NCBI GenBank assembly: GCA_965205025.1 | Contig: CBDBFU010000015.1 | Span: 413,501 to 477,500 of the forward strand | Length of the DNA: 64,000 nt | Direction of reading: 5' to 3' | Origin: Candidatus Poribacteria bacterium | GTDB lineage: Bacteria; Poribacteria; WGA-4E; WGA-3G | In this document: positions 1-27,822 of the stretch, in pieces | How the letters are laid out: each line of letters opens with the position of its first letter | Numbering within the stretch: the first letter of the stretch is position 1 | The notes under the pieces: generated by a model | Databases searched by the model: none | What the model was told of the DNA's origin: nothing | What the model saw: only the letters and a program-made list of their open reading frames with translations | Program-made: the position numbers and the translations under genes

Positions 1-664
1 TGAATGTTGCTACATTATTATGAAGTTTCGAATTTAGTTCCTTATCGTCTGCACCAAAGAGTGATATTCCTACTAAATTGATAACCATTGGCGAATCGGG
101 ATTGATCACATCAAATGACAACGATGCGAGCGTGCCATCGCCACCTGAAAATGTGACCGTGCCATCTGAAGCAAGTGGCGCTGAACTCAACACAGTTATG
201 ACTTGAAACTTTAAATCAGACGGATCCACATCGGTGTCTACATCTGGCAATATTCCAATCAACGCGGGATCCGGTATTTTAAAAAAGAAATCTGATAATG
301 AAAGCGTCTGGGCGTCTTCACCTGGTCCAAAAGCAACAGACTGTCCCGTGGTTGTTGTTTTGTCGATGCTGAGTTGAAGTTCGTAGGTATCATTGTCCCC
401 CAACGCAGGACGAATAAAGATGCCATCGGGAGGCAGGTAATCTCCTTGTGTGGTGTCAACATATTTCAAGACAGTTGGATCATAGGCAACCAGTAGATTA
501 TAACCTGCGACTCCTTTCCCGTCTGCCAAGTGAATATCAACTTTTATTTTTGGTAAAGTCACGTTGGTATCATGTTTAAGAGATACCACCATTTCAGCAT
601 AACTCAGTGCTGTCCAGCCTAATAACAAGATGGTTGTCAATAAACCGCAAAATGTTTTTCTCAC
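1..664 (-). CDS. Secreted cohesin-like domain protein, 3' end beyond window
   Basis: Manual translation from GTG 664 (RBS AGGAG): signal peptide, then IKVDIHLADGKGVAGYNLLVAYDPTVLKY...GGDGTLASLSFDV; frame open to position 1. Confidence 0.7.
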   Translation of the reverse strand, partial: MRKTFCGLLTTILLLGWTALSYAEMVVSLKHDTNVTLPKIKVDIHLADGKGVAGYNLLVAYDPTVLKYVDTTQGDYLPPDGIFIRPALGDNDTYELQLSIDKTTTTGQSVAFGPGEDAQTLSLSDFFFKIPDPALIGILPDVDTDVDPSDLKFQVITVLSSAPLASDGTVTFSGGDGTLASLSFDVINPDSPMVINLVGISLFGADDKELNSKLHNNVATF

Positions 665-753
665 GATTATGTTCTCCTATGTTTGTACCGTAAACTTTCC
701 AGTTTGCGGTCTTTTCTGTAGAATGTTTTTCTCACGATTATGTTCTCCTATGT
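651..753. repeat. 32-bp direct repeat duplicating RBS and start codon (period 71)
   Basis: aatgtttttctcacgattatgttctcctatgt at 651 and 722. Confidence 0.9.
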
Positions 754-760
754 ATATGCA

Positions 761-855
761 CGGGTTTTGTGTCTCCCCGCAGGTGTTGAATCGTTTTTTG
801 TTCATTTTCACATGTGCCAGTTTTTTTTACACGCCACTGGCGGGGACGAGGTGTT
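761..855 (-). ncRNA. Candidate structured RNA, motif A (816-855) + motif B (761-786)
   Basis: Similar elements at 7050-7131 and 8337-8423 with compensatory stem changes. Confidence 0.6.
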
Positions 856-920
856 CAGATAGGCGTCTGGTCTATGGGTTAGGGGAAGAGGTATAGACCA
901 GACATAAGGACGTGCAACTT

Positions 921-1424
921 TTACCAACCTCTGCGTTTCTTGATGATGGCATGAATATCAGTGTGGCAGTCCTTACAGAGCGAGACAAGATCGGATAGCG
1001 GTTCTTTGCCAATGTTGTCATAGCGTTTGTGATGCACGACGGAGGCGTTGGCACCACATACACATAAGTATCCATCGCGTTCTAAGACAGTTATCCGTTT
1101 GGCACGCCATGTATCCGTTTCTATATATCGCGGATAATGCTTGTCCCAGTTTCTGCTGATAAGTTCGTGCCAGTTTATTTGTGTTCCTATCCCTTTCAAT
1201 ATATCTCGTCCATCCGATGTAAGCCTGTATTTCCCTCTGCTGACAAACTCTATCGCCTCCATATCGCGTAGCTGGGTTAACGTACATAAGACGGTGACAG
1301 TCGGTGTGCTGGCGTTGGGATATTTCTCTATCAAACGATCGAGGTATTTCCATATATCTTTTGATGTGAATTCCTCCTGATTTATTTCTAATATAATTTG
1401 TGCGACTTCGCTTTTCCAACTCAT
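921..1424 (-). CDS. DpnI-like winged helix + HNH endonuclease
   Basis: N-term W..EFT...YPN...LRD..IEF..RGKYR; C-term CVC..VHH.RY...LVSLCKDCH. Confidence 0.75.
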   Translation of the reverse strand: MSWKSEVAQIILEINQEEFTSKDIWKYLDRLIEKYPNASTPTVTVLCTLTQLRDMEAIEFVSRGKYRLTSDGRDILKGIGTQINWHELISRNWDKHYPRYIETDTWRAKRITVLERDGYLCVCGANASVVHHKRYDNIGKEPLSDLVSLCKDCHTDIHAIIKKRRGW

Positions 1425-1426
1425 TT

Positions 1427-1507
1427 TTAGTTATCGTCTGTTCCACATCCTAAAATTGTGATGGTAAGTATGCCAAAAATACTTGTGCCTAAAGTTCTCA
1501 TAAACAT
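1427..1507 (-). pseudogene. Orphan lipoprotein signal-peptide fragment (26 aa)
   Basis: MFMRTLGTSIFGILTITILGCGTDDN*, lipobox ILGC. Confidence 0.55.
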
Positions 1508-1528
1508 AATTTCTTCTTTCTTTGAGTA

Positions 1529-1611
1529 CGGGGGTTTTTTCGTCTCCCCGAAGGACGCCTTAGGAGGAGTAGATTGTTTTTTAGAGACCCCACACAATCT
1601 ACAAAGCGAGG
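1529..1611 (-). ncRNA. Candidate structured RNA, motif C (1569-1611) + motif B (1529-1557)
   Basis: GUAGAUUGU/ACAAUCUAC stem crossed by CCUCGC/GUGGGG, then CGUCCUUCGGGGAGACGAAAAAACCCCC. Confidence 0.6.
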
Positions 1612-1625
1612 AAGCGAAAGTACTA

Positions 1626-4600
1626 TTACTTTAGAATCAACATCCTGCGCGTGGCGGTGAACTCACCCGCAGTCAACATATAAAAATACAAACCACTTGC
1701 CACAGGTTCACCGTGTGCATTTCTGCCATCCCAATACGCAGCACGACTCGGACTATTATAAAAGCCTGCGGATTGAAAACCGAGCGAAAGGGTACGTATC
1801 AGTTTCCCCGAAGTATCATAAATGGAAATAGATACATGACTCTTTTCTGTGAGTTGATAAGGTATCCAGGTTTCGGGGTTGAACGGGTTCGGGTAGTTCT
1901 GCAACAACTTATTCTGTTGCGGTTTACCGATGCTATCAAACTTGACAGATAATAGTGCGTTTGCCAGGTTCTCAGGTGTCACTTTAATACTGCGGGTTTG
2001 TGATTCAACATTGCCTCCCGGACCTATGACGCGTAATTCAATCACGTCTCCAACTTTGACAACGCTCCGCCGCGCTAAGTCGGCAGTTGCAGCAGCAAAG
2101 TAATTACCTCGCACCGAGGCGGTTATCTTGCCGTTTGTTCTCAAGTTACGGACGATGACCTTGTAACCGTCAAACGTTGGTTTGCCTTCCAATTGTCCAC
2201 TTACCACGAATGCCCAGGCTTCTTGGACAACATCCCCTGTCAAGGGGGTAATGGCAGATGGTGCAGCAGAAGTCTCCGTTTGATTTGTCCATCGTGAGCC
2301 GACAAAGGCAAAATTGCGAGTCTGTGGGACATTGACAATGTACCCTTTTCCACCTTCAATAGCGAATCCATCGTTTGGTGCATCTGGTGTCCACCCGATG
2401 AACCGTTGTTTTTCAGCATCAAGTGCTATGACAATAGTCGCACCAGCTATCCCAGCAAGTGATTTTGCAGTCATCGGTTTCGGTGGTGCTAAAGGCACAG
2501 AAAGCATGTTTAAACCTTTCGTCAACGTGACGTTGAAGATGTTGCCAAACTGATCGCTTTCCTCCTTGGGAGTTGGTCTCGCGATAAATCCATGTCTGCG
2601 TCCATCCGATGAGTCATAGTGTCCGACAATGGAACCATCCTGATTGATATTCCACCCCTCCGTGCTGATGCTGCCGGGAAACCGCAACTCACGTAGGTTA
2701 AGGGGATTGCCGAAATAGGTGCGCGGGACATCTCCTATTGCTTTAGCTCTGCCAACGACGGTCCTTGACTCGTTGAGACCGTGTAGAAAAAAGTATTCCA
2801 GATTCAGTGCATCTGGAAGGTCAATATATAAGAACCTACCCGTCGGGCCACGCACAAATGCATGATATATGCCTTCAGCATCCGTGTGACTCCCCACGAT
2901 ACTGCCCGTCCAACTCACAAAATCGGCATAAGTTTCCGATGCCCCGGGGACCTCAACGATTGTGTCGCCTGAGAACCCGCGGCGAACACCTGAAGCATCT
3001 ATAAAATTACCCGTTAGGGCACCCGTTGCATCACTAATGCCGTATATCTCCGTTTGGACGGCATTCGGGAAATCGTATCGGGCGCAACTCACCGTTTTCT
3101 AAGACGACACCGTGGTACAAGCCATTGCTATCCTCATAGTGTCCCGCGACTGTCCCATCATTCCCCAACGCATAGAAGTAAGTGTTCTTTGAATCCGGGA
3201 AATCATGACGCGTAAAAACACCATCAATAAGCGTAAAGCCGACAGTTTTAGTGCCATCTTCACTTTTCGTGTTTCCTGCATAGTCTCCATAGTCACTGCT
3301 GGCGGTCAACGCTAAAAAATGGACACCCGGAACATCAATACTCTCATAAGTAAAGCCGATGGGTGTGCCAATGCGTCTATTACTGGTTCTTGTATCAGTG
3401 CTCTCTATGGGTCTTGCGATAAATCCGTATCTGCGGCCATCGGGTGTGTCATAGTGTCCGACGACGGATCCGTCCTGATTGATATTCCAACCCTCTGTGC
3501 CAACGCTATCCGGAACGCGCAATTCTTGTAGGTTGAGGGGGTTGCCGACATAAGTGCGTGGGACACCATCCACCGGTTTGGCGCGACCAACAGCAATCAG
3601 TGCATCGTTGAGACCGTGGAGGAAAAAGTAGTCCAACTCTCCTTTTAGTGGAAGGTCGAGTGTTGCCAAACTACCCCCTGGACCACGGAAGTATGCATGA
3701 TATGTCCCTGCAGCATCCACGTAGCTACCCACGGTATTACCTAACCCGCTCACAAAATCGGCATAAGTTGCCGATGCGCCGGGAAACTCAATGATTGTGT
3801 CGCCTGAGAACCCGCGGCGAACACCAGAAGCATCTACCATATTACCCGTTAGTCTCCCTGTGGAGTCACTATAACCGAAGATTTGGGTTTCGACTGCACC
3901 CGGAAAATCGTATTGGCGTAGTACTCCATCTTCTCCTAAGATGACACCGTGGTAGAGTCCATCGCTATCCTGGTAGTGTCCGGCGGCGACCCCATTGTTA
4001 CCGAGCGCGTAGAAATAAGTGCCTTGTGCCCCAGGGAAATCGTAGGTGGTAAAGACACCATCAATTAGCGTAAAACCAACCATTTTTTCGCCATCGGCAC
4101 TCGGGGTGTTGCCTGCGTAGTCCTCAAAGTCGCTACTCGCTGTCACGGCTAAAAACTCTACACCCGGCACCGCAATTGTCTCGAATGTATAGTTGACATT
4201 AGCGGGGGCAACGGGTTCTTCTACAACAGGTTCTTCGGTGTCCATTATAGGTCTGGCGACAAACCCGTATCTATGTCCATCCGCTGAGTCATAGTGCCCG
4301 ACGACCGAACCATCCTGATTAATATTCCACCCCTCCGTGCTAACGGCACCCGGGAACTGCAATTCATGTAAACCTTCGGCACCGCCGACATAAGTGCGCG
4401 GGACATCATCCACCGCTTTGGATCGAGCCACGATAACACCAGCATCGCTGATACCATGCAAAAATATGTATTCAAACTCTGGTGTGTCTGTAAAACGTTG
4501 TAGGTCTGCCCTATTTCTATAGTCCAAAGATAGAAACCTTTCATCCGAGGTCCGCACGTATCCCTCATATTTCCCTTCAGCATCTACGTAACTGCCAACG

Positions 4601-6969
4601 ATACTGCCGTGCTCATTCACAAAATCGGCATAAGTTTCCGCTGCTCCAGGGAATTCAACGATGATGTCGCCTGAGAACCCGCGGCGAACCCCGGAAGCAT
4701 CTATATAATTACCGGTCAATGCCCGGTCGCATCAGAAATGCCGTGTATGAACGTTTCAACGGCATCCGGGAAATCATATTGGCGCAACTCGCCATCTTCC
4801 AAGATGACACCGTGGTGCAGACCGTCGCTGTCCTCGTAGTATCCAGCAGCGATACCTGTATTACCCAGGGCATAGAAATAAGTGTTCTTTGCACCAGGGA
4901 AATGATATGTCGTAAACACCCCGTCAATGAGCGTAAAGCCGACTATATTTTCACCATCAGCACTTTTCGTGTAGCCAGCGTAATCCTCATGGTCACTACT
5001 CGCCGTCACCTGTAAAAAATCTATACCTGGAACATCAATACTCTCAAAAGTATAGCTTGCCCCGGCGAGGTCGAGTTCAATAGGTTCGTGGCTAACATGT
5101 GGAGCGGTGTCCGCATCGGGTCTGGCGATAAACCCGTGTCGTTTTCCATCCGCTGTGTCATAGTACCCAACGACAGAACCATCCTCATTGATATTCCAAC
5201 CCTCTGTGCTGACGCTGCCCGGGAACCGAAACTCATAGACACCGTGGCTCCCACCGACATAAGTGCGTGGCACATCATCCACACGTTTGATGCGGACAAC
5301 GTAAATCAATGCTTGATTGACACCGTGCGCAAAAAGATATTCTATATTTTCTGCATGTGGAAAGTTTAAAGATGTAATCCTGCCTGGGGAAATCATATAC
5401 ATGTGATAGATACCTTCACCGTCTACGTAGCTGCCCACGACGCGACCTGTAGCATTGACAAAATCTGCGTAGGTCTCAGATGCCCCGGGAATCTCAATGA
5501 TTGTCTCGCCTGAGAACCCGCGACGTACACCGGAAGTATCTATATAATTACCGGTCAATACACCGGTCGCATCAGAAATGCCGTGTATGAACGTTTCGAC
5601 GGCACCCGGAAAATCGTATTGGCGCAACTCACCGTCTTCCAAGATGACACCGTGATGCAGACCGTCGCTGTCCTCGTAATGTCCGGCAGCGATGCCTGTA
5701 TTACCCAGGGCATAGAAATAGGTGTTCTTTGCACCAGGGAAATGATATGTCGTAAACACCCCATCAATAAGCGTAAAGCCGACTATATTTTCACCATCAG
5801 CACTTCGGGCGTTGCCTGCGTAATCCTCAAGATCGTTACTCGCTGTCAACTCTAAAAAATCTACACCCGGAACTTCAATGCTCTCAAAAGTATAATTGAA
5901 GTCCGAACTCGCCGTCAGCTCTAAGAACGCTATACTCGGAATATCAGCATTCACAAAGGTATAATCGGAGTCAGCGTGTGTATCAACATGTTCATCGTCA
6001 ACAGGTGGAGTAGTATCGCCTTCAGGTCTGGCGATAAATCCGTATCTATGCCCATCTGCTGTGTCATAGTACCCGACGACGGAGTCGTCCTGATTGATAT
6101 TCCAACCCTCTGTGCTCACACTGCCCGGAAATTGCAATTCATGAAGCGTTGAGACCACCTGTTCCGCAGACAAGTCCTGATCGCTCGAAAACTGAAAATC
6201 CTCTAATCCTTGGATGAGTTTGCCGACATAAGTGCGCGGGACATCACCCAACGCTTTGTTTCGGACAATGTAACTCAATGTATCATTGAGACCGTGAAGA
6301 AAAAAGTACTCAAGAAATTCTGCCCCCGGAATCTTGACAAATGTAAACTTGCCGTTCGGATTATACACATAAGGATGGTATATTCCATCAACATCTACGT
6401 AGCTACCCACGACGGCACCTGACGCATTGACAAAATCGGCATAAGTCTCACGCGCTCCGGGCACCTCAATGATGGTCTCCCCAGTAAAGCCGCGACGAAT
6501 ACCAGAAGCATCTATAAAATTACCTGTCAATACCCCGGTCGCATCACTAATTCCGAGTATTTGCGTTTCAACGGCACCCGGATAATCGTATTGACGCAAC
6601 TCGCCATTTTCCAAGATGACACCATGGTATAGCCCCTCACTGTCTTCGTAGTGTCCTGCAGCGCGTCCATCATTACCAAGGGCGTAGAAGTAAGTGTTCT
6701 TTGCATCGGGGAAATGGTATGTTGTGAAAAACGCCATCAATGAGCGTAAAAGCGACATTTTTTTCGCCATCAGCACTTTTCGTGTAGCCAGCGTAGTCCT
6801 CAAAGTCGCTACTCGCTGTCAACGCTAAATAGTCTACACCGGGGACATCTATTGTCTCAAAAGTGTAGTTGGGGTCGCTGGATTCATCGTTAACTTGTGC
6901 TAAGGAATTGGCGCACATCAACAGTATAAATATGAAATACATAAAGCTAAGTTTCATTGGATTTCTCAT
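1626..6969 (-). CDS. Large secreted protein, five ~280-aa beta-propeller-like (HAF-like) units + FlgD-Ig/T9SS-like tail; split by 3 frameshifts (~1780 aa reconstructed)
   Basis: Four collinear ORFs match the intact paralog 22972-25671; shifts at ~6727-6731, ~4722-4724, ~3080-3082; tail LLQNYPNPFNPETWIPYQL. Confidence 0.85.
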
Positions 6970-7049
6970 GATGAAAGTCTCCCTAAATTATTTTGTTAAT
7001 TTCAAATATTCCTTTTTCCAATTCATTGCGTCCCTGATATTGTATAGTG

Positions 7050-7131
7050 CGGGGGGTTTTCGTCTCCCCGCAGGACGTTTCAGATAACCCTATGGCAGCT
7101 ATTTATGATACGCCACTACCGGGCGAAGTAT
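7050..7131 (-). ncRNA. Candidate structured RNA, motif A (7094-7131) + motif B (7050-7077)
   Basis: P1 AUAC/GUAU and P2 GGUAG/CUGCC versus ACAC/GUGU and GCCAG/CUGGC in other copies. Confidence 0.6.
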
Positions 7132-7138
7132 GAAAACC

Positions 7139-8311
7139 TTATTCAGTCGTAGTCGCGCCAGCAACAAATGTATGTGGCACTATTTGCCCATTTTCAATCT
7201 TCATAATACCAACACCTTTGACGGCATGGCGTTGTGCATCAAAATGAGAAATAAAGGTGGCTCCCATGTAGTTTTGCGTTGCAGCAATCGCGTCTCGGAC
7301 GATGACCGGATCAGTGGATTGTGTTGTCGCAATTGCCATCGCCAATAAGCGCACATTATCATACCCTGATGCAGCGACACCATCAGCCACTTCACCGAAC
7401 TTCGTTTGATAGGCTTGTATGAATTGTTTTGTGCTCGGATCTTCTGATGTTAGGTCAAGGTTGGTTGTATAGTAAGTGCCTTCAAGCGGCGTGTTATCCT
7501 GGAGAGTGCCGAACATATTTTCAGGGTCTTCCATACCATCACCCCCGATAAATATAGCTTCAATCTCCATCGCTCTGGCAGCTTCCATGATGCGCGGTAC
7601 TTCTGGGGCAAAACTGGCGAGGAATAGCACATCCGGATCGGCTGCTTTGATAGCGGTGAGTTGTTGTGTGAAATCCATCGCACCGGCTTGGTACAACTGT
7701 TCATCAGCGAGGGTGCCACCGAGTTTTTGAAATTCGGTATCAAAAGCATCAGCGATGCCTCTTGAATAGACATCTTGATCTTGCAATATTATCGCTGCGG
7801 TTGCTGCTTTGAGCTCCTCAACAGCGAAATTTGCCATCAACTCACCATGTAAAACATTGGAACCAGTCACAAGGAAAATAAAATCGTTGGTTTGGGTGAC
7901 ACGACGCGCATCGGCTGCACCGGCAAGCATCGGGACTTGAATATTCGGATCAATTTTTACCGCATGGCTGGAAAACACGGGACCGATGATACCCACGACT
8001 TTTTCAACTTCAACCAATTCCGTGAGGGTATCGGTAAGGGTGTCCGTGAGTTCATCTTTGTGGACGAGCTCCACTTGCATGCCGTTCACACCACCGGCAG
8101 CGTTGATGACATCTCGGGCGAGTTCCGCTCCTCTGGTGAAACTTGGATAATAGTTCGGGGGTTGAAGGATACCTACTTTCAATGTGGTATCTGTGGGTGT
8201 ATCCGTCATAGCTGACATCAGCACATTTTTCGTTTTGTCGCACCCGAACATAAATGTAACTGTGAACATAAATGTAATACTTAAAAGTAATCTCAAAACT
8301 ATCGTTCTCAT
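7139..8311 (-). CDS. Branched-chain amino-acid type ABC substrate-binding lipoprotein (LivK/LivJ family)
   Basis: Lipobox MFGC; INAAGGVNG, IIGP.FS, DFTQQLTAIKAADPD. Confidence 0.9.
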   Translation of the reverse strand: MRTIVLRLLLSITFMFTVTFMFGCDKTKNVLMSAMTDTPTDTTLKVGILQPPNYYPSFTRGAELARDVINAAGGVNGMQVELVHKDELTDTLTDTLTELVEVEKVVGIIGPVFSSHAVKIDPNIQVPMLAGAADARRVTQTNDFIFLVTGSNVLHGELMANFAVEELKAATAAIILQDQDVYSRGIADAFDTEFQKLGGTLADEQLYQAGAMDFTQQLTAIKAADPDVLFLASFAPEVPRIMEAARAMEIEAIFIGGDGMEDPENMFGTLQDNTPLEGTYYTTNLDLTSEDPSTKQFIQAYQTKFGEVADGVAASGYDNVRLLAMAIATTQSTDPVIVRDAIAATQNYMGATFISHFDAQRHAVKGVGIMKIENGQIVPHTFVAGATTTE

Positions 8312-8336
8312 TGATTGTCTCCTTTTATTTTTAGTG

Positions 8337-8423
8337 TGGGGATTTTGCGTCTCCCCGCAGAACGTGGTAGTAGTATATAAGCCAGTGATTTTGTATACAC
8401 GCGACTGGCAGCGGCGAGGTGTT
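8337..8423 (-). ncRNA. Candidate structured RNA, motif A (8381-8423) + motif B (8337-8364)
   Basis: Third A+B copy, ending ~12 nt before the RBS of gene 8311. Confidence 0.6.
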
Positions 8424-8485
8424 ATGGCTTTACGACAATATTGACAGCGTATAAGTTGTCTCTCTATTTTCGCTCAACAAATGCA

Positions 8486-9103
8486 TCATTTATCATTGTT
8501 TGGTAATAATTGTAATTTGAGTAGCAACCATTTTGCACACCATGGATCGAAGATATTACCATCTACTGATGCTTTTTCAGCATCAGAAAGTAGCCGCTGT
8601 GCCTCTTCGTTAGTTAGTGTCACTGCTTTGTGTATTGGAAGCCCAGTAATGTTTTCAATAGCGTCTATATAGTAAACATGGTAAGGAAACATATTATCTC
8701 TTAGATATGTTTCTTCCAATGTGTAATCCGCTCCATCCCCACCTGATTCTCCACAGGGACTGCGAAGTGTCAACAACATACCACGAAGCACTGGAAGACA
8801 GGATTCTAACTTTAGGTGTCCTGCGACTAAAACTGCTGGAGTAGAATAATCCTGGATAAAAATAGCAATTTCCTTTTCAATTTCCATTTTATTCCTTTCA
8901 AGCCATATCAACTCCTGATCACTAAAATTTCTATCAACAGGATCAACCGTCCAATCATAATATGCTAACTTTCTTGCTATCCGAAAACCAATTACCTCAT
9001 CAGACAATGTAGTTTTTTCTGAGGGCACCATGCAACCACCCAGCAACAAACAAACAAGTGCGTAACTTATTGCGATACAAATAATCAATCTTGATATTTT
9101 CAT
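8486..9103 (-). CDS. Hypothetical lipoprotein
   Basis: Start MKISRL after AAGGA; lipobox LGGC. Confidence 0.65.
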   Translation of the reverse strand: MKISRLIICIAISYALVCLLLGGCMVPSEKTTLSDEVIGFRIARKLAYYDWTVDPVDRNFSDQELIWLERNKMEIEKEIAIFIQDYSTPAVLVAGHLKLESCLPVLRGMLLTLRSPCGESGGDGADYTLEETYLRDNMFPYHVYYIDAIENITGLPIHKAVTLTNEEAQRLLSDAEKASVDGNIFDPWCAKWLLLKLQLLPNNDK

Positions 9104-9116
9104 AGAGTATTCCTTT

Positions 9117-9617
9117 TTAATTGTTTGTTGGTTCACGGAACACTGATAACAGGATGTCATCCGTTTCCGCCCCGTGTTCCTCTGCAAGTTGCTCAATTGA
9201 CATTTCGGGGTCGCTGACTGTATAACCGTCATTGCCAAGTCGTTTCACAAGGGTGTCCACGTCCAGGTCAACAATCGGTGCCATTCGCGTAATAGACGTT
9301 TGCTCCATTTTCTCCATTATCAATTCTTCAGGTTCGCCTTGACTGAAAATGGCAGTTCTTGCGACCAGTCCGACACCTATCAACCACGCCACTGTGATGA
9401 TAATCACACTGCGCTGAGAGAAATACTTTTTGAAGGGTCTCCAATTCGTGTAGATGTGAAGCACAATTGCAACTGAAAATCCGAGACCAACGATCTCATG
9501 TGCAGACAGGAAAGGTTGTTCCGTAGTAAAGAACATAAGCAGTCCTGTCATCGCTGAAATAATACCTGCCCCTATAATGAGAGGCGTAGCAAATCGTCTA
9601 ATGTTTAGTTTTTTCAT
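9117..9617 (-). CDS. DUF4405-like membrane protein
   Basis: TGLLMFF...HEIVGL...LHIYTNWRPF, three TM segments with conserved His. Confidence 0.75.
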   Translation of the reverse strand: MKKLNIRRFATPLIIGAGIISAMTGLLMFFTTEQPFLSAHEIVGLGFSVAIVLHIYTNWRPFKKYFSQRSVIIITVAWLIGVGLVARTAIFSQGEPEELIMEKMEQTSITRMAPIVDLDVDTLVKRLGNDGYTVSDPEMSIEQLAEEHGAETDDILLSVFREPTNN

Positions 9618-25690: not shown

Positions 25691-25734
25691 TGTAGATTGT
25701 TTTAGGAGAGACTCGCACAATCTACAAAACGAGT
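25691..25734 (-). ncRNA. Candidate pseudoknot motif C directly upstream of RBS
   Basis: ACUCG/CGAGU crossed with GUAGAUUGU/ACAAUCUAC; CUCCU in loop. Confidence 0.6.
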
Positions 25735-25760
25735 AAGGAGAAAGTCAAATGTATATTGAA

Positions 25761-25950
25761 CAGGACTTACGCATTTCATCTTAAAGTCCCCCTGATAAGG
25801 GGCGGGGAATGCCCTAAGGCATTCATACCCGGGGAATGCTAAATAGCATTCATACCGTTGATTCCTTGATTCTTTAGGGGGTTAAAACACCGAAATGACG
25901 GATTTTTAAGTCAAATTTTACCTTTTTTTGCTTAAGTTGCGTAAGTCCTG
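25761..25950. mobile_element. MITE with CAGGACTTACGCA TIRs and TTGAA flanking duplication, containing nested hairpin repeats
   Basis: Perfect 13-bp TIR; ttgaa on both sides. Confidence 0.85.
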
Positions 25951-26028
25951 TTGAATTTCAAGTGTGGATATTTAAAAACGCCTCCACGGGGCGAGACCTT
26001 AAGTCCTTTCTTAAATATCCTCTGATTC

Positions 26029-27822
26029 CTATTTCATTATCAACATCTTTCGCGTTGCAGAAAAGTCACCTGCGGTGAGTGTATAAAAATACAAACCGCT
26101 TGCCACAGTTTCACCCAACGCATTTTTCCCATCCCAATATGCCGCACGGTCTCTGCTTTGATAGAGGCCCGCAGACTGATTGCCTATCGCAAGTGTCCGA
26201 ACCAAATTCCCATCTGCAGCGTAGATGGATAATGTAACATCCGCAGATGTCGCCAACTGATACGGTATCCATGTTTCCGGATTGAATGGATTCGGGTAGT
26301 TTGCGAGTAAGACACTCTTTTTTGGCACAACGTTTGATGAGATCAGGGGTGCTGCGGCATTGACTTTGTAAAGATAGAGTCTATCTCTACGCCAATTGAA
26401 GCTAAAATAGTAAGTAGGGACATCTTCGTTCTGCCCTTGAAATCGCAAAGCAGCATCAAGGTTATATGAGCGATAGGTGACGGCATTATCACCTGCAATC
26501 CAATCAAATCGGATTTTTGGAAACCCTTGAGCAAGACTTTCTTCATCTGACCTATGAGTATAGACATACCCAGTTTCAAGCGAATACTTCTGCCAAGAAT
26601 CGTTCTGTGTCCACCTCATTTGATAATGTACACGCACCCCTGTCGTGTTTCTAATTTTTACTGTCCACCTCTGGCGTAAAGTGTCAAGTAATGCCTTTAT
26701 GTTTTGGGTCGTTGCGGCCCCAGAGGAAGTTTCATCCGATCCCGCACTCAGGACACCGATAAGCACACCTTGACCGTTGAGGACGGGACCGCCACTATTG
26801 CCTTCATGCGTATCACCTTCCATTACTAAACACCCTACTAACTCACCTTCTTCGACTGGACAACTTGCTTGTGGCCCAAGGAAGGTTCCCTGTGTATAGT
26901 TCCACAACCGGTCCCCTGGATTTCCCAAGATATGAATCTTATCACCTCGTTTCATGCTATCTTCAACGTTCCGGCTAAAGTCGTGCTGAATCTCGCGGGC
27001 TGTCGACGGCAGCCGATCCAGTTGGAGAATTGCAAGGTCGTTTTCCACATTTTGTGCAATGACCTGTGCTTCTTCGGTAGCATACTTATTGGCTACAAGC
27101 CATTCCATATTGTCCAGGTAGAAATCCTCATCCTTCCGCAATCTTCCTTGATCTCTGTAAGGAAAAAACACAGAGATCCGCTCAGCATTCTCTATAACAT
27201 GCTGGTTGGTAACAATAAGCTTGCGATCCTTGTCAATCAAAAACCCACTTCCTTTACCAATCCAATTGCCCTTACCTGTACGTATCCACACAACAGAATG
27301 AATCGCTTGATCATAGATTTCCTGTGCTGGCAGATCAGCGGGCCCAACCGGATCACAGTCGGTACGTTTCGTAATGATATGTATACCGTCGTCCGTGTTG
27401 AATTCGTAGAGTGTAGCTGTATCTAAAGACGCTTGATTGTGATCACTATCCAAGTATTCCCCTGTTTCCGTCTCCACAACCGTAAATTTCCTTGTCGGAT
27501 GCAGCCAAAAAAAATAACTATCTCGCGTTTCATGGTCAAGTGGTTTAATTTCGTTACCATTAGGATCTTCTACACGAATATACACAAAATCATTATCAAC
27601 TGGGACCGATAGATTTATAAAACCGCCAGGTTCAATCTCATACCAACCTTCTGTCCGATAGCCTGCGGGTAAATCATCGCTTGCCTCTCTCCATGTGGAA
27701 TATATGACCCAGGCATCCTCTGTCGCGCTGCCATTAGCAACAAGGAAGTCCGCGGCTGCTAATTGTGTTAGAAGAAGTGTTGTTGTTAGAAAAATAAATA
27801 TGTAAAATATTTTCTTATACAT
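26029..27822 (-). CDS. Secreted trypsin-like serine protease (DUF1036-like N-term, FlgD-Ig tail)
   Basis: TNQHV, NDLAIL, GNSGGPV triad motifs; NYPNPFNPETW. Confidence 0.9.
   Translation of the reverse strand: MYKKIFYIFIFLTTTLLLTQLAAADFLVANGSATEDAWVIYSTWREASDDLPAGYRTEGWYEIEPGGFINLSVPVDNDFVYIRVEDPNGNEIKPLDHETRDSYFFWLHPTRKFTVVETETGEYLDSDHNQASLDTATLYEFNTDDGIHIITKRTDCDPVGPADLPAQEIYDQAIHSVVWIRTGKGNWIGKGSGFLIDKDRKLIVTNQHVIENAERISVFFPYRDQGRLRKDEDFYLDNMEWLVANKYATEEAQVIAQNVENDLAILQLDRLPSTAREIQHDFSRNVEDSMKRGDKIHILGNPGDRLWNYTQGTFLGPQASCPVEEGELVGCLVMEGDTHEGNSGGPVLNGQGVLIGVLSAGSDETSSGAATTQNIKALLDTLRQRWTVKIRNTTGVRVHYQMRWTQNDSWQKYSLETGYVYTHRSDEESLAQGFPKIRFDWIAGDNAVTYRSYNLDAALRFQGQNEDVPTYYFSFNWRRDRLYLYKVNAAAPLISSNVVPKKSVLLANYPNPFNPETWIPYQLATSADVTLSIYAADGNLVRTLAIGNQSAGLYQSRDRAAYWDGKNALGETVASGLYFYTLTAGDFSATRKMLIMK

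Follow-up and report, generated by a model that had tools for sequence, protein, structure and literature searches.

An undescribed modular family of pseudoknot RNA elements in Candidatus Poribacteria

The window analyzed in this study is a 64,000-nucleotide stretch of a Candidatus Poribacteria genome (GenBank assembly GCA_965205025.1, contig CBDBFU010000015.1, positions 413,501 to 477,500 of the forward strand; all window coordinates below count from its first letter). Two short sequence motifs, A and B, recur on its minus strand, in the spacers of an island that encodes secreted proteins. A first-pass annotation, made from the letters alone, had described them as a recurring two-part pseudoknot RNA. 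That observation is real, and it is larger and stronger than first seen. Motifs A and B belong to an undescribed family of modular pseudoknot RNA elements, which in the genomes searched is confined to a single poribacterial family, and the evidence ties these elements to the start of the downstream cistron. Judging from their sequence and placement, we consider it likely that the modules are cis-acting RNA elements working on the downstream or adjacent cistron. More tentatively, and with less than even confidence, we favor a translational operator at initiation, which either the ribosome or an RNA-binding protein particular to the lineage would recognize, with A acting cooperatively.

Structure of motifs B and A

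Four motif B cores lie on the minus strand of the window, at 757-786, 1527-1557, 7048-7077, and 8335-8364. A degenerate B pattern matched exactly four times in the 64 kb and never in any of 100 dinucleotide shuffles. Motif A was found on the same strand at 812-854, 7090-7131, and 8377-8422, each time 16-29 nt upstream of B. The gaps from the last paired base of A to the first of B were 16, 16, and 29 nt, in agreement with the 16-30 nt reported earlier. All sequences listed in the first-pass annotation were present on the minus strand. It had missed a fourth A copy at 25959-25999, which no B follows.

Motif B is a 31-nt unit, CGUC-C-UGCGGGG-A-GACG-CAAAAC-CCCCGCA. A covariance-model search of 242,652 bases (the window plus fetched loci) gave 102 matches, 100 of them distinct, and the A set, also found by covariance model, comprised 57 copies (54 distinct). 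Pairing was judged on the collected copies by base-pair counts, with shuffled and slid-partner controls. The second stem of B, S2 (UGCGGGG/CCCCGCA, 7 bp), was 94.2% paired over the 100 distinct copies in an alignment that was fitted to S2 and favors it, and both-side changes occurred in six of its seven pairs. One of these pairs, for example, was GC in 70 copies, GU in 10, CG in 8, AU in 1, and UA in 1. The first stem, S1 (CGUC/GACG, 4 bp), is interleaved with S2 and independent of the covariance model, which was built without it. S1 was approximately 91% paired in the same copies and nearly invariant, its first pair being CG in 67, UG in 14, UA in 3, and AU in 1. None of 500 shuffles reached the covariation score of B, and slid partners cut its pairing to 21-57%. 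A fifth S1 pair (columns 5/25) was rejected, being unpaired in 72 of 100 copies. Besides the stems, the GAGAC sequence, the C of loop 1 (L1), the A of L2, and most of L3 (CAAAAC) are conserved. The earlier description of B as an H-type pseudoknot is supported by these data.

The copies of B in the window keep this fold to different degrees. Copy 3 (7048-7077, minus strand, 52.2 bits with the covariance model) is a perfect consensus pseudoknot. Copy 4 (8335-8364, minus, 49.2 bits) is made up of S1a CGUU (8361-8364), L1 C (8360), S2a UGCGGGG (8353-8359), L2 A (8352), S1b GACG (8348-8351), L3 CAAAAU (8342-8347), and S2b CCCCACA (8335-8341), with one C.A mismatch. Copy 2 (1527-1557, minus) scored 40.6 bits. 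Copy 1 (757-786, minus, 39.6 bits) is degenerate: S1 is broken (ACAC vs GACA), as had been noticed before, and S2 has one G.G mismatch.

The true pairing of motif A emerged from the contexts of B copies in relatives, many of which have an A upstream. The first stem proposed earlier, ACAC/GUGU, did not survive, since it was 69.5% paired compared with 70.2% in shuffles, and 382 of 500 shuffles reached the observed value. The covariation ascribed to it belongs to another helix, P1 (CUCGCC/GGCGUG), whose closing (last) pair was CG in 33 copies, GC in 6, UA in 4, and UG in 3. The first pair of P1 was C-G in 42 copies and U-A in the copy at 7090-7131, and its second position is a U.U, unpaired in all 51 of 51 copies. 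Covariation in the second stem, P2, had also been claimed, and here the result was far stronger than three copies could show: P2 was 93.8% paired, all six pairs were changed on both sides, and 0/500 shuffles reached the covariation score. Two of its pairs illustrate the variety (CG 21, UA 15, GC 13; and AU 21, GC 12, CG 9, UA 7). Loop 3 (UAnAnAAAAUA, 8-12 nt) is conserved, and slid-partner controls for A and B together brought pairing down to 20-57%. From the pairing of P1 and P2, A is an H-type pseudoknot too, with a conserved stem 1 and loop 3 and a stem 2 that is free to vary. Within one array, A copies carry differing P2 sequences, and orthologous copies across species share P2. Two interleaved covarying helices are thus present in both motifs, in A by P1 and P2 and in B by S2, with few double changes in S1. 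Nested minimum-free-energy folding of two A-B regions with their Shine-Dalgarno (SD) sequence recovered P2 of A and part of S2 of B, with z-scores of -0.56 and 0.02 that are uninformative because the method cannot model knots.

All window copies of A are on the minus strand. Copy 3 (8377-8422) scored 52.6 and 51.1 bits with two covariance models; it consists of P1a CUCGCC (8413-8418), L1 (8410-8412), P2a GCCAGU (8404-8409), P1b CGCGUG (8398-8403), an A-rich L3 (8387-8397), and P2b ACUGGC (8381-8386). Copy 2 (7090-7131, 20.4 bits, E 0.031), which has orthologues in three relatives (G007, G036, and G028), pairs P1a UUCGCC (7122-7127) with GGCGUA, and its P2 is GGUAG/CUGCC, including a U.G pair. 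Copy 1 (812-854, 43.7 bits) has P1a CUCGUC (845-850) with a U.G pair in P1, P2 GCCAGU/ACUGGC, and L3 UAAAAAAA. The extra copy (25959-25999, 32.4 bits, E 5.3e-05) has P2 GUGGA/UCCAC and comes after a gene whose product ends in ...FSATRKMLIMK at the stop.

Strand and position relative to genes

The modules have a fixed orientation and a narrow placement relative to gene starts. With a strict heuristic, an SD, a start codon, and an open reading frame (ORF) lay within 60 nt downstream of B at 51 of 101 distinct sites on the sense strand, compared with 6 of 101 on the antisense strand. Within 200 nt, sense-strand genes were present at 69 of 101 sites. It had been stated that B always lies just upstream of a ribosome-binding site (RBS); the association stands, but "always" is too strong. 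Start codons clustered 14-26 nt past the end of S2b (37/69 sites), and the SD core began 4-14 nt past it in 32 of the 39 sites that passed a stricter SD-spacing rule. On the 5' side, 79 B sites could be evaluated, the other 22 having too little flank; the nearest long ORF ran in the same direction at 74 of the 79, often at a distance of just 0-140 nt, and was divergent at 3. Orientation is therefore that of the sense strand of the flanking genes and is not random. In the window, the A copy at 7131 begins 8 nt past the stop codon of a binding-protein gene. Such co-directional upstream ORFs and short distances indicate that the modules are mostly intercistronic or between tandem genes.

Base pairs that work on one strand only point the same way. 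G.U cells outnumbered A.C cells on the gene strand by 87 to 53 over all four helices. The sense-strand preference seen earlier in a single U.G pair is thus real, and the excess supports the sense strand, although it is modest and not decisive. Two interleaved covarying helices per module also fit a single-stranded fold and would be unexpected for a promoter or a protein-binding palindrome. It is very improbable, in our view, that the element works at the DNA level, whether as a promoter with the A-rich loop of A as its -10 box, a transcription-factor palindrome, or a recombination site such as integron attC. A sigma-70-like TTCATA-18-TATCAT does overlap A at 7134-7105, and TTAGGT-like words resembling TTRRRY recur at module borders. 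The co-oriented genes with modules form arrays with a spacing of 1-4 kb, and tyrosine recombinases are encoded approximately 3-12 kb from some of them. However, a transcript from the "-10" of A would miss the 5' half of A, yet that half is constrained to pair. Promoter-like sites in the window region were near chance (22 vs 16.1 in shuffles, standard deviation 3.6). By eye, neither an R''/R' inverted core nor a matching inverted partner of the TTAGGT-like words was seen.

Promoter and integron readings were also considered separately, and both were rejected. For an extracytoplasmic function (ECF)-type or sigma-70 promoter in A, the spacing and the -35 fit poorly across copies by eye, and the one scan hit was no better than chance. 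The integron integrase model TIGR02249 was over its cut-off in none of five genomes (G000, G002, G014, G036, and G007), where tyrosine-recombinase tails scored 23-52 bits against a 265-bit integron-integrase cut-off. The generic tyrosine-recombinase genes near arrays (46-52 bits) lie at G002:C14:20057-20248, G014:C54:21293-21484, and G000:C27:55494-55691, all on the minus strand.

The same placement data suit a nearly equal rival to the operator, which we regard as possible but doubtful. The modules may be constitutive intercistronic processing, stability, or insulator elements: long transcripts of co-directional genes would be cut in the spacers, the knots, being mechanically stable, would shield the new 5' end against 5'-dependent decay by RNase J or RNase E, and they would keep the RBS from pairing with upstream sequence, no dedicated regulator being needed. 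The co-directional upstream gene at 74/79 sites, often 0-140 nt off, fits this explanation, as does the A copy 8 nt past a stop codon, which leaves no room for a promoter. S2 of B has seven G+C-rich pairs, and neither a terminator nor an alternative fold was seen. The modules can be additive (B-B, A-B-A-B), and the only constraint on P2 of A is that it pairs. This genome has genes for RNase J (570 bits) and RNase E/G (507 bits), whereas RNase Y was not found in it. Against this explanation, the conservation of the B stems and loops and of P1 and L3 of A goes beyond the expected needs of stability, an excess that tertiary contacts could partly explain, and an enrichment of genes for exported proteins is not predicted by it.

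Distribution

The genome containing the window (5.66 Mb, 38.5% G+C) has 17 model matches of B at E<=1, 13 of them below 1e-5, and 11 of A at E<=1, 8 of them below 0.01. Among other genomes, those in which B was found numbered 31 of 37 in the same genus and 12 of 57 in a sister genus; a third genus contributed 1 of 20, and the remaining 19 sampled genera, with 36 genomes in all, contributed none. An earlier draw gave 31/36 in the genus and 0/24 in three other families. A was found in 30/37 genomes of the genus, 2/57 of the sister genus, and 0/56 elsewhere in the phylum sample. These figures describe samples, with stricter filters above 40 genomes, and absence means not found in the genomes searched. 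Within the genus, the number of B copies ranged from 0 to 23 per genome, and the six genus genomes lacking B (G001, G009, G018, G019, G025, and G030) also lack A. An exact-pattern scan of one genome per GTDB species returned 35 stretches, 33 of which came from metagenome-assembled genomes (MAGs) or single-cell genomes of Candidatus Poribacteria. Matches beyond Poribacteria (Chitinimonas, a Thermoanaerobaculia MAG, and two viral contigs) were judged to be chance, with a broken S2 and scores of 28.6, 17.4, 21.1, and 10.6 bits.

Comparison with known RNA elements

The first-pass annotation could not place the motifs in a family it knew, and covariance models gave the same answer. None of the 4227 models of Rfam 15, among them riboswitches, ribozymes, and the candidate motifs of 2010 and 2017, matched at gathering score in the 64-kb window. 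A permissive scan of 500-9000 gave only four noise matches (E 2.6-7.6), and a scan of 64,444 bases of module-rich sequence from relatives yielded nothing at E<=0.1. No paper in the library searched describes an element of this kind in Poribacteria. In PMC5737381, the main text mentions neither Poribacteria nor sponge, tandem pseudoknot, or signal peptide, and the supplements of that paper could list a poribacterial motif.

In architecture, both motifs resemble the smallest pseudoknot riboswitches. The preQ1-I, SAM-II/SAM-V, and guanidine-III aptamers lie in 5' leaders near the SD, and their third loop, rich in A, occupies the stem 1 groove. Like A and B, they consist of stem 1, a loop of 1-3 nt, stem 2, a junction of 0-1 nt, and an A-rich loop, and the size (30-46 nt) and 5'-leader location are similar. 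Unlike them, A and B have no Rfam 15 match, their SD lies outside the knot, their second stems of 6-7 bp should fold unaided, and they occur in 10-20 copies per genome before unrelated genes. The preQ1-I type, in which P2 sequesters the SD or start and the genes concern queuosine or transport, was rejected on two grounds: the SD is outside the knot (4-14 nt 3' in 32/39 sites), and the downstream genes encode cohesin, binding, orphan, and nuclease proteins.

That one or both knots are an aptamer for a small molecule or signaling nucleotide, controlling a secretome regulon, seems quite improbable to us. The topology (short P1, A-rich L3, P2), the conserved unpaired positions, the occurrence in the 5' leaders of many genes, and the tandem arrangements would suit it. 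However, no expression platform was seen, with the SD 4-14 nt outside the knot and terminator-like hits near the shuffle level: 11 such sites were found in 500-9500, compared with 8.0 in shuffles (standard deviation 3.0), and none overlaps A or B. No ligand should be required for second stems of this length (6-7 pairs) to fold, no metabolic theme links the downstream genes, the free shuffling of modules would be atypical, and no Rfam aptamer matched. "Riboswitch-like" had been one of the options listed at first. Both knots have second stems that are long and rich in G+C, neither a terminator nor an alternative fold was seen, and the regulated genes share no metabolic theme, which makes this option the least favored.

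A comparable position relative to the start codon is known from protein-bound leaders. The rpsO/S15 pseudoknot, the thrS operator, and the T4 gene 32 leader fold at or near the SD, are bound by protein, and control initiation. Those are cases of single-gene autoregulation, whereas A and B stand before dozens of unrelated genes, combine two knots, and have only a putative binding protein. The ToxI-like RNAs of type III toxin-antitoxin systems are pseudoknot units of approximately 36 nt with A-rich strands, which are recognized by protein and lie upstream of a protein gene. Pseudoknot units before a protein gene, sometimes in tandem, are shared with A and B. Unlike ToxI-like arrays, A and B are mostly single, and their downstream genes are diverse and mostly encode exported proteins. 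None of 30 neighboring proteins scanned belonged to a ToxN-like family.

Known small ribozymes share the multi-copy, intercistronic context of A and B. A small ribozyme that cleaves itself and so separates the genes of a polycistronic transcript would also agree with the arrays of genes with unassigned roles, the pseudoknots, and the invariant unpaired nucleotides. However, no known self-cleaving class is as small and simple as the B core, with its approximately 31 nt and only about 8 unpaired positions; no Rfam 15 ribozyme matched, and no conserved candidate cleavage dinucleotide is evident. We give this explanation very little credence.

Genes downstream and upstream of the modules

Signal-peptide-like N-termini were found in 50 of 71 downstream proteins over all sites, a count by a crude heuristic that is to be read as an enrichment and not as a statistical test, because many sites are orthologous and not independent. 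The same heuristic applied to this genome gave a background of 796/2970 (27%) for ORFs of at least 150 amino acids and 88/703 for ORFs of 100-149 amino acids. Within the window, the genes that follow the units encode a Peripla_BP_6 lipoprotein, a 98-amino-acid signal-peptide protein, and a cohesin-domain protein. The lipoprotein-like periplasmic binding protein (390 amino acids, 7139-8311, minus strand; Pfam Peripla_BP_6, E 7.9e-40; N-terminus MRTIVLRLLLSITFMFTVTFMFGC) follows A copy 3 and B copy 4; here the SD is AAGGAG and the ATG, at 8311, is 23 nt past S2b. After B copy 3 come a 12-codon short ORF and then the 98-amino-acid gene, which starts at 6969.

The secreted cohesin-domain protein (2-664, minus strand; Pfam Cohesin, E 1.5e-05) runs off the window and lies downstream of copy 1, and paralogues of its gene with the same N-terminus also come after B in C10, G007, and G036. 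Copy 1 of B is followed by a duplicated SD and GTG start, at 735 and 664. These belong to a 29-nt direct repeat, TAGGAGAACATAATCGTGAGAAAAACATT, at 722-750 and 651-679 on the minus strand. The first repeat copy opens a 22-codon ORF that stops approximately 3 nt before the GTG at 664, just past the SD of the second copy, and the second copy starts the cohesin-domain gene. Copy 2 of B precedes only a 26-codon remnant ORF with a lipoprotein signal peptide (ATG at 1506), after which comes a 167-amino-acid DpnI_C-HTH protein with a C-terminal Cys/His (HNH-like) region (both within 921-1506, minus). It looks like a nuclease gene was inserted into, or replaced, a gene for an exported protein at this place.

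The island also encodes FlgD_ig/Por_Secre_tail and LTD/dockerin proteins by Pfam. The remaining downstream genes in the collected loci are orphans or nuclease-like; they include CoiA_N and T5orf172, and 8 of the 10 proteins of one array have no Pfam family. Locus L058 (G014:C43:21000-39424) is an 18-kb co-directional gene run, almost all of it without a Pfam family. It contains three similar four-gene sets (of approximately 110, 220-260, 220-280, and 290-430 amino acids), and a B copy leads two of the three sets as well as several later genes, with a UVR motif in one protein. Genes upstream of modules often end in ...G(D/E)F(T/S)ATR(K/R)MLI(L/R/M)K at the stop (window 1626-3092, 26030-26150, and many loci). 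This end is a C-terminal sorting domain of the FlgD_ig/Por_Secre_tail type, and it often travels with the A-B unit.

Module grammar and evolution of the loci

When hits not more than 120 nt apart were grouped, the collected loci held 49 groups of B, 43 of A-B, 7 of A, 3 of A-B-B, 1 of A-B-A-B, and 1 of A-B-A; A alone is under-counted in this tally because the loci were chosen by B hits. A stands before B, and the reverse order occurs only inside the A-B-A and A-B-A-B groups. The first description of a modular two-part RNA family was right in its modularity and compensatory changes, but the family has more than two parts. A third module, H0, is a hairpin directly 5' of A that accompanies 9 of the 56 distinct A copies and was seen in relatives and not in the window. 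Its 9-bp stem covaries (UGCGUGCGG ... CCGCACGCA), CUUA precedes it, and its loop is 16-23 nt long; examples are L055:5655-5700, L056:12200-12265, L072:2010-2072, and L026:1385-1437, among others. The H0-A-linker-B composite reaches approximately 170 nt. In some loci, a small linker hairpin follows A, AUUGGY-GGUUAUU-GCCRNU, with a conserved GGUUAUU loop (L055:3725-3745, L055:4755-4775), and it may be a fourth module.

A tentative A-like variant, A', recognized by eye and carrying no model score, precedes B copy 2 at 1568-1612 (minus strand). Its P2 pairs GUAGAUU (1596-1602) with AAUCUAC (1569-1575), and its P1 is divergent (CCUC/GGGG). A related A' copy was seen by eye near 25700-25740. Between it and the extra A at 25959-25999 lies a 14-nt inverted repeat, CAGGACTTACGCAA ... 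TTGCGTAAGTCCTG, with arms approximately 160 nt apart (25770-25960, minus). Repeats of GGTATGAATGC-N9-GCATTCCCCG are found inside it, and the segment could be a small mobile insertion.

The paralogous copies differ in the P2 sequence of A, in the linker, and in the downstream gene, which bears out the earlier statement that this is not plain duplication. Three copies are near-identical (G000 C7:207900-208100, C27:66830-67020, and C27:40300-40500; L022-L024). In each, the 3' end of a gene (...RKMLILK, then the stop) is followed by A and then by a B variant with an extra A-U pair inserted in S2. Two of them continue with CCGCGTAATCCG-type short repeats, and no obvious gene comes after any.

The locus downstream of the binding-protein gene was aligned in four species (window 7043-7215 vs L061, L062, and L037). 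The aligned sequences are homologous across the gene end (in three of the four species), A, the linker, and B. Homology ends exactly where B does on its 3' side, and the SD and genes farther on are unrelated. In G028, homology starts only in mid-A. On this alignment, the module borders behave as recombination breakpoints, marking where genes are exchanged between species. Three genomes of the genus that lack the motifs were checked as well; there, the best homologues of the binding protein are approximately 50% identical, and no modules flank their genes. The sequence upstream is AT-rich and promoter-like by eye, and a hairpin-plus-T-run terminator lies downstream in G030 and G019, the two regions with the gene end in view. 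Together, the ortholog alignment and the motif-free loci indicate that the modules are a lineage-specific way of organizing gene arrays.

Such behavior raises the question of a selfish or neutral mosaic repeat, spread through flexible islands in one poribacterial lineage and, as its main effect, giving homology for recombination and gene replacement. Pneumococcal BOX, the enterobacterial repetitive extragenic palindromic (REP) sequences and bacterial interspersed mosaic elements (BIME), and Neisseria Correia elements are, like A and B, multi-copy, intergenic, modular in order and number, and lineage-restricted. Co-transcription with neighbors can be counted as a further likeness, with the transcription of A and B being presumed. 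In favor of such a repeat, copy number is lineage-specific and patchy (0-23 B per genome in the genus), and A and B are lost together. The grammar is a mosaic, copies cluster in islands of orphan genes, nuclease genes, and repeated gene sets, orthologous loci lose homology exactly at the 3' edge of B, and there is the near-identical C7/C27 trio. However, REP, BIME, BOX, and Correia elements are hairpins found in both orientations without a fixed distance to genes, whereas A and B are pseudoknots with compensatory changes, a fixed orientation (51 sense vs 6 antisense of 101), and a set distance to the start (14-26 nt). Old, diverged paralogous copies keep their pairing by compensatory change, which amounts to purifying selection on structure, and orthologous copies are kept across species. 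No transposase was seen linked to the modules, REP-associated tyrosine transposase (RAYT)-type genes having been outside the search. We therefore think a mere mosaic repeat unlikely.

Proposed role

The operator is favored because of four observations: the position of B, the conservation beyond pairing, the joint presence and absence of A and B, and the set of exported proteins. A and B would be sense-strand modules of mRNA leaders and intercistronic spacers, each folding alone into an H-type pseudoknot, and together they would form a translational operator for the downstream cistron. We infer that they are transcribed and that the knots form in the cell; with its seven G+C-rich pairs, B should fold unaided. 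A constitutively folded B would bury the SD-like GGGGAGA, 4-14 nt 5' of the real SD (the 3' end of the 16S rRNA of this genome is ...CACCUCCUUUCU), and would thereby sit in the mRNA segment positioned on the 30S platform as translation initiates. A lineage-specific trans factor, most likely an RNA-binding protein or else the 30S platform itself, would recognize the conserved surface of B and, once bound, would determine the translation frequency of the downstream gene. A, 16-30 nt upstream, would be a second module for cooperative recognition or anchoring. The conserved loops and stems of B, and the conserved P1, U.U, and loop of A beside a free P2, suggest specific recognition rather than bare stability.

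Several points weigh against this operator. The pairing percentages of both motifs are inflated because the alignments were fitted to the second stems by covariance models, and the knot of B rests mainly on conservation, since S1 is only 4 bp and hardly varies. The G.U excess is modest. At 32 of 101 B sites, no gene was recognizable within 200 nt by the heuristic, and some copies, such as those of C7 and C27, follow a gene and precede nothing obvious. The downstream genes include those of nucleases and orphan proteins, not of exported proteins alone, and the heuristic behind the exported-protein count is crude. Additive structural units or mosaic repeats would account no less well for the variable number and order of modules. 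A candidate binding protein did not emerge, no phyletic-profile search for a partner having been made. Finally, of seven sequencing runs listed for the stretch, six contain part of it and two contain more than half of its words, and none is on record as RNA.

Significance

Poribacteria are uncultivated sponge symbionts. To our knowledge, nothing is known about gene regulation in them. The A/B elements add two undescribed small pseudoknot families to RNA biology, with clean covariation and an unusual modular grammar; A is unusual in its invariant U.U in stem 1 and its freely varying stem 2. There is an outside chance that A and B represent two novel classes of RNA that respond to a ligand or a factor, a two-knot switch that co-regulates the exported proteome, or that one knot is the smallest self-cleaving ribozyme found so far. 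If so, the two-knot switch would answer a signal derived from the host or the community, and the cohesin/dockerin, Por_Secre_tail, and lipoprotein genes would form an "interaction" proteome of these sponge symbionts. The module borders may help explain how the flexible islands of poribacterial genomes are built. The pair of elements at the RBSs of genes for mostly exported proteins provides a handle, testable in vitro, on post-transcriptional control in this phylum.

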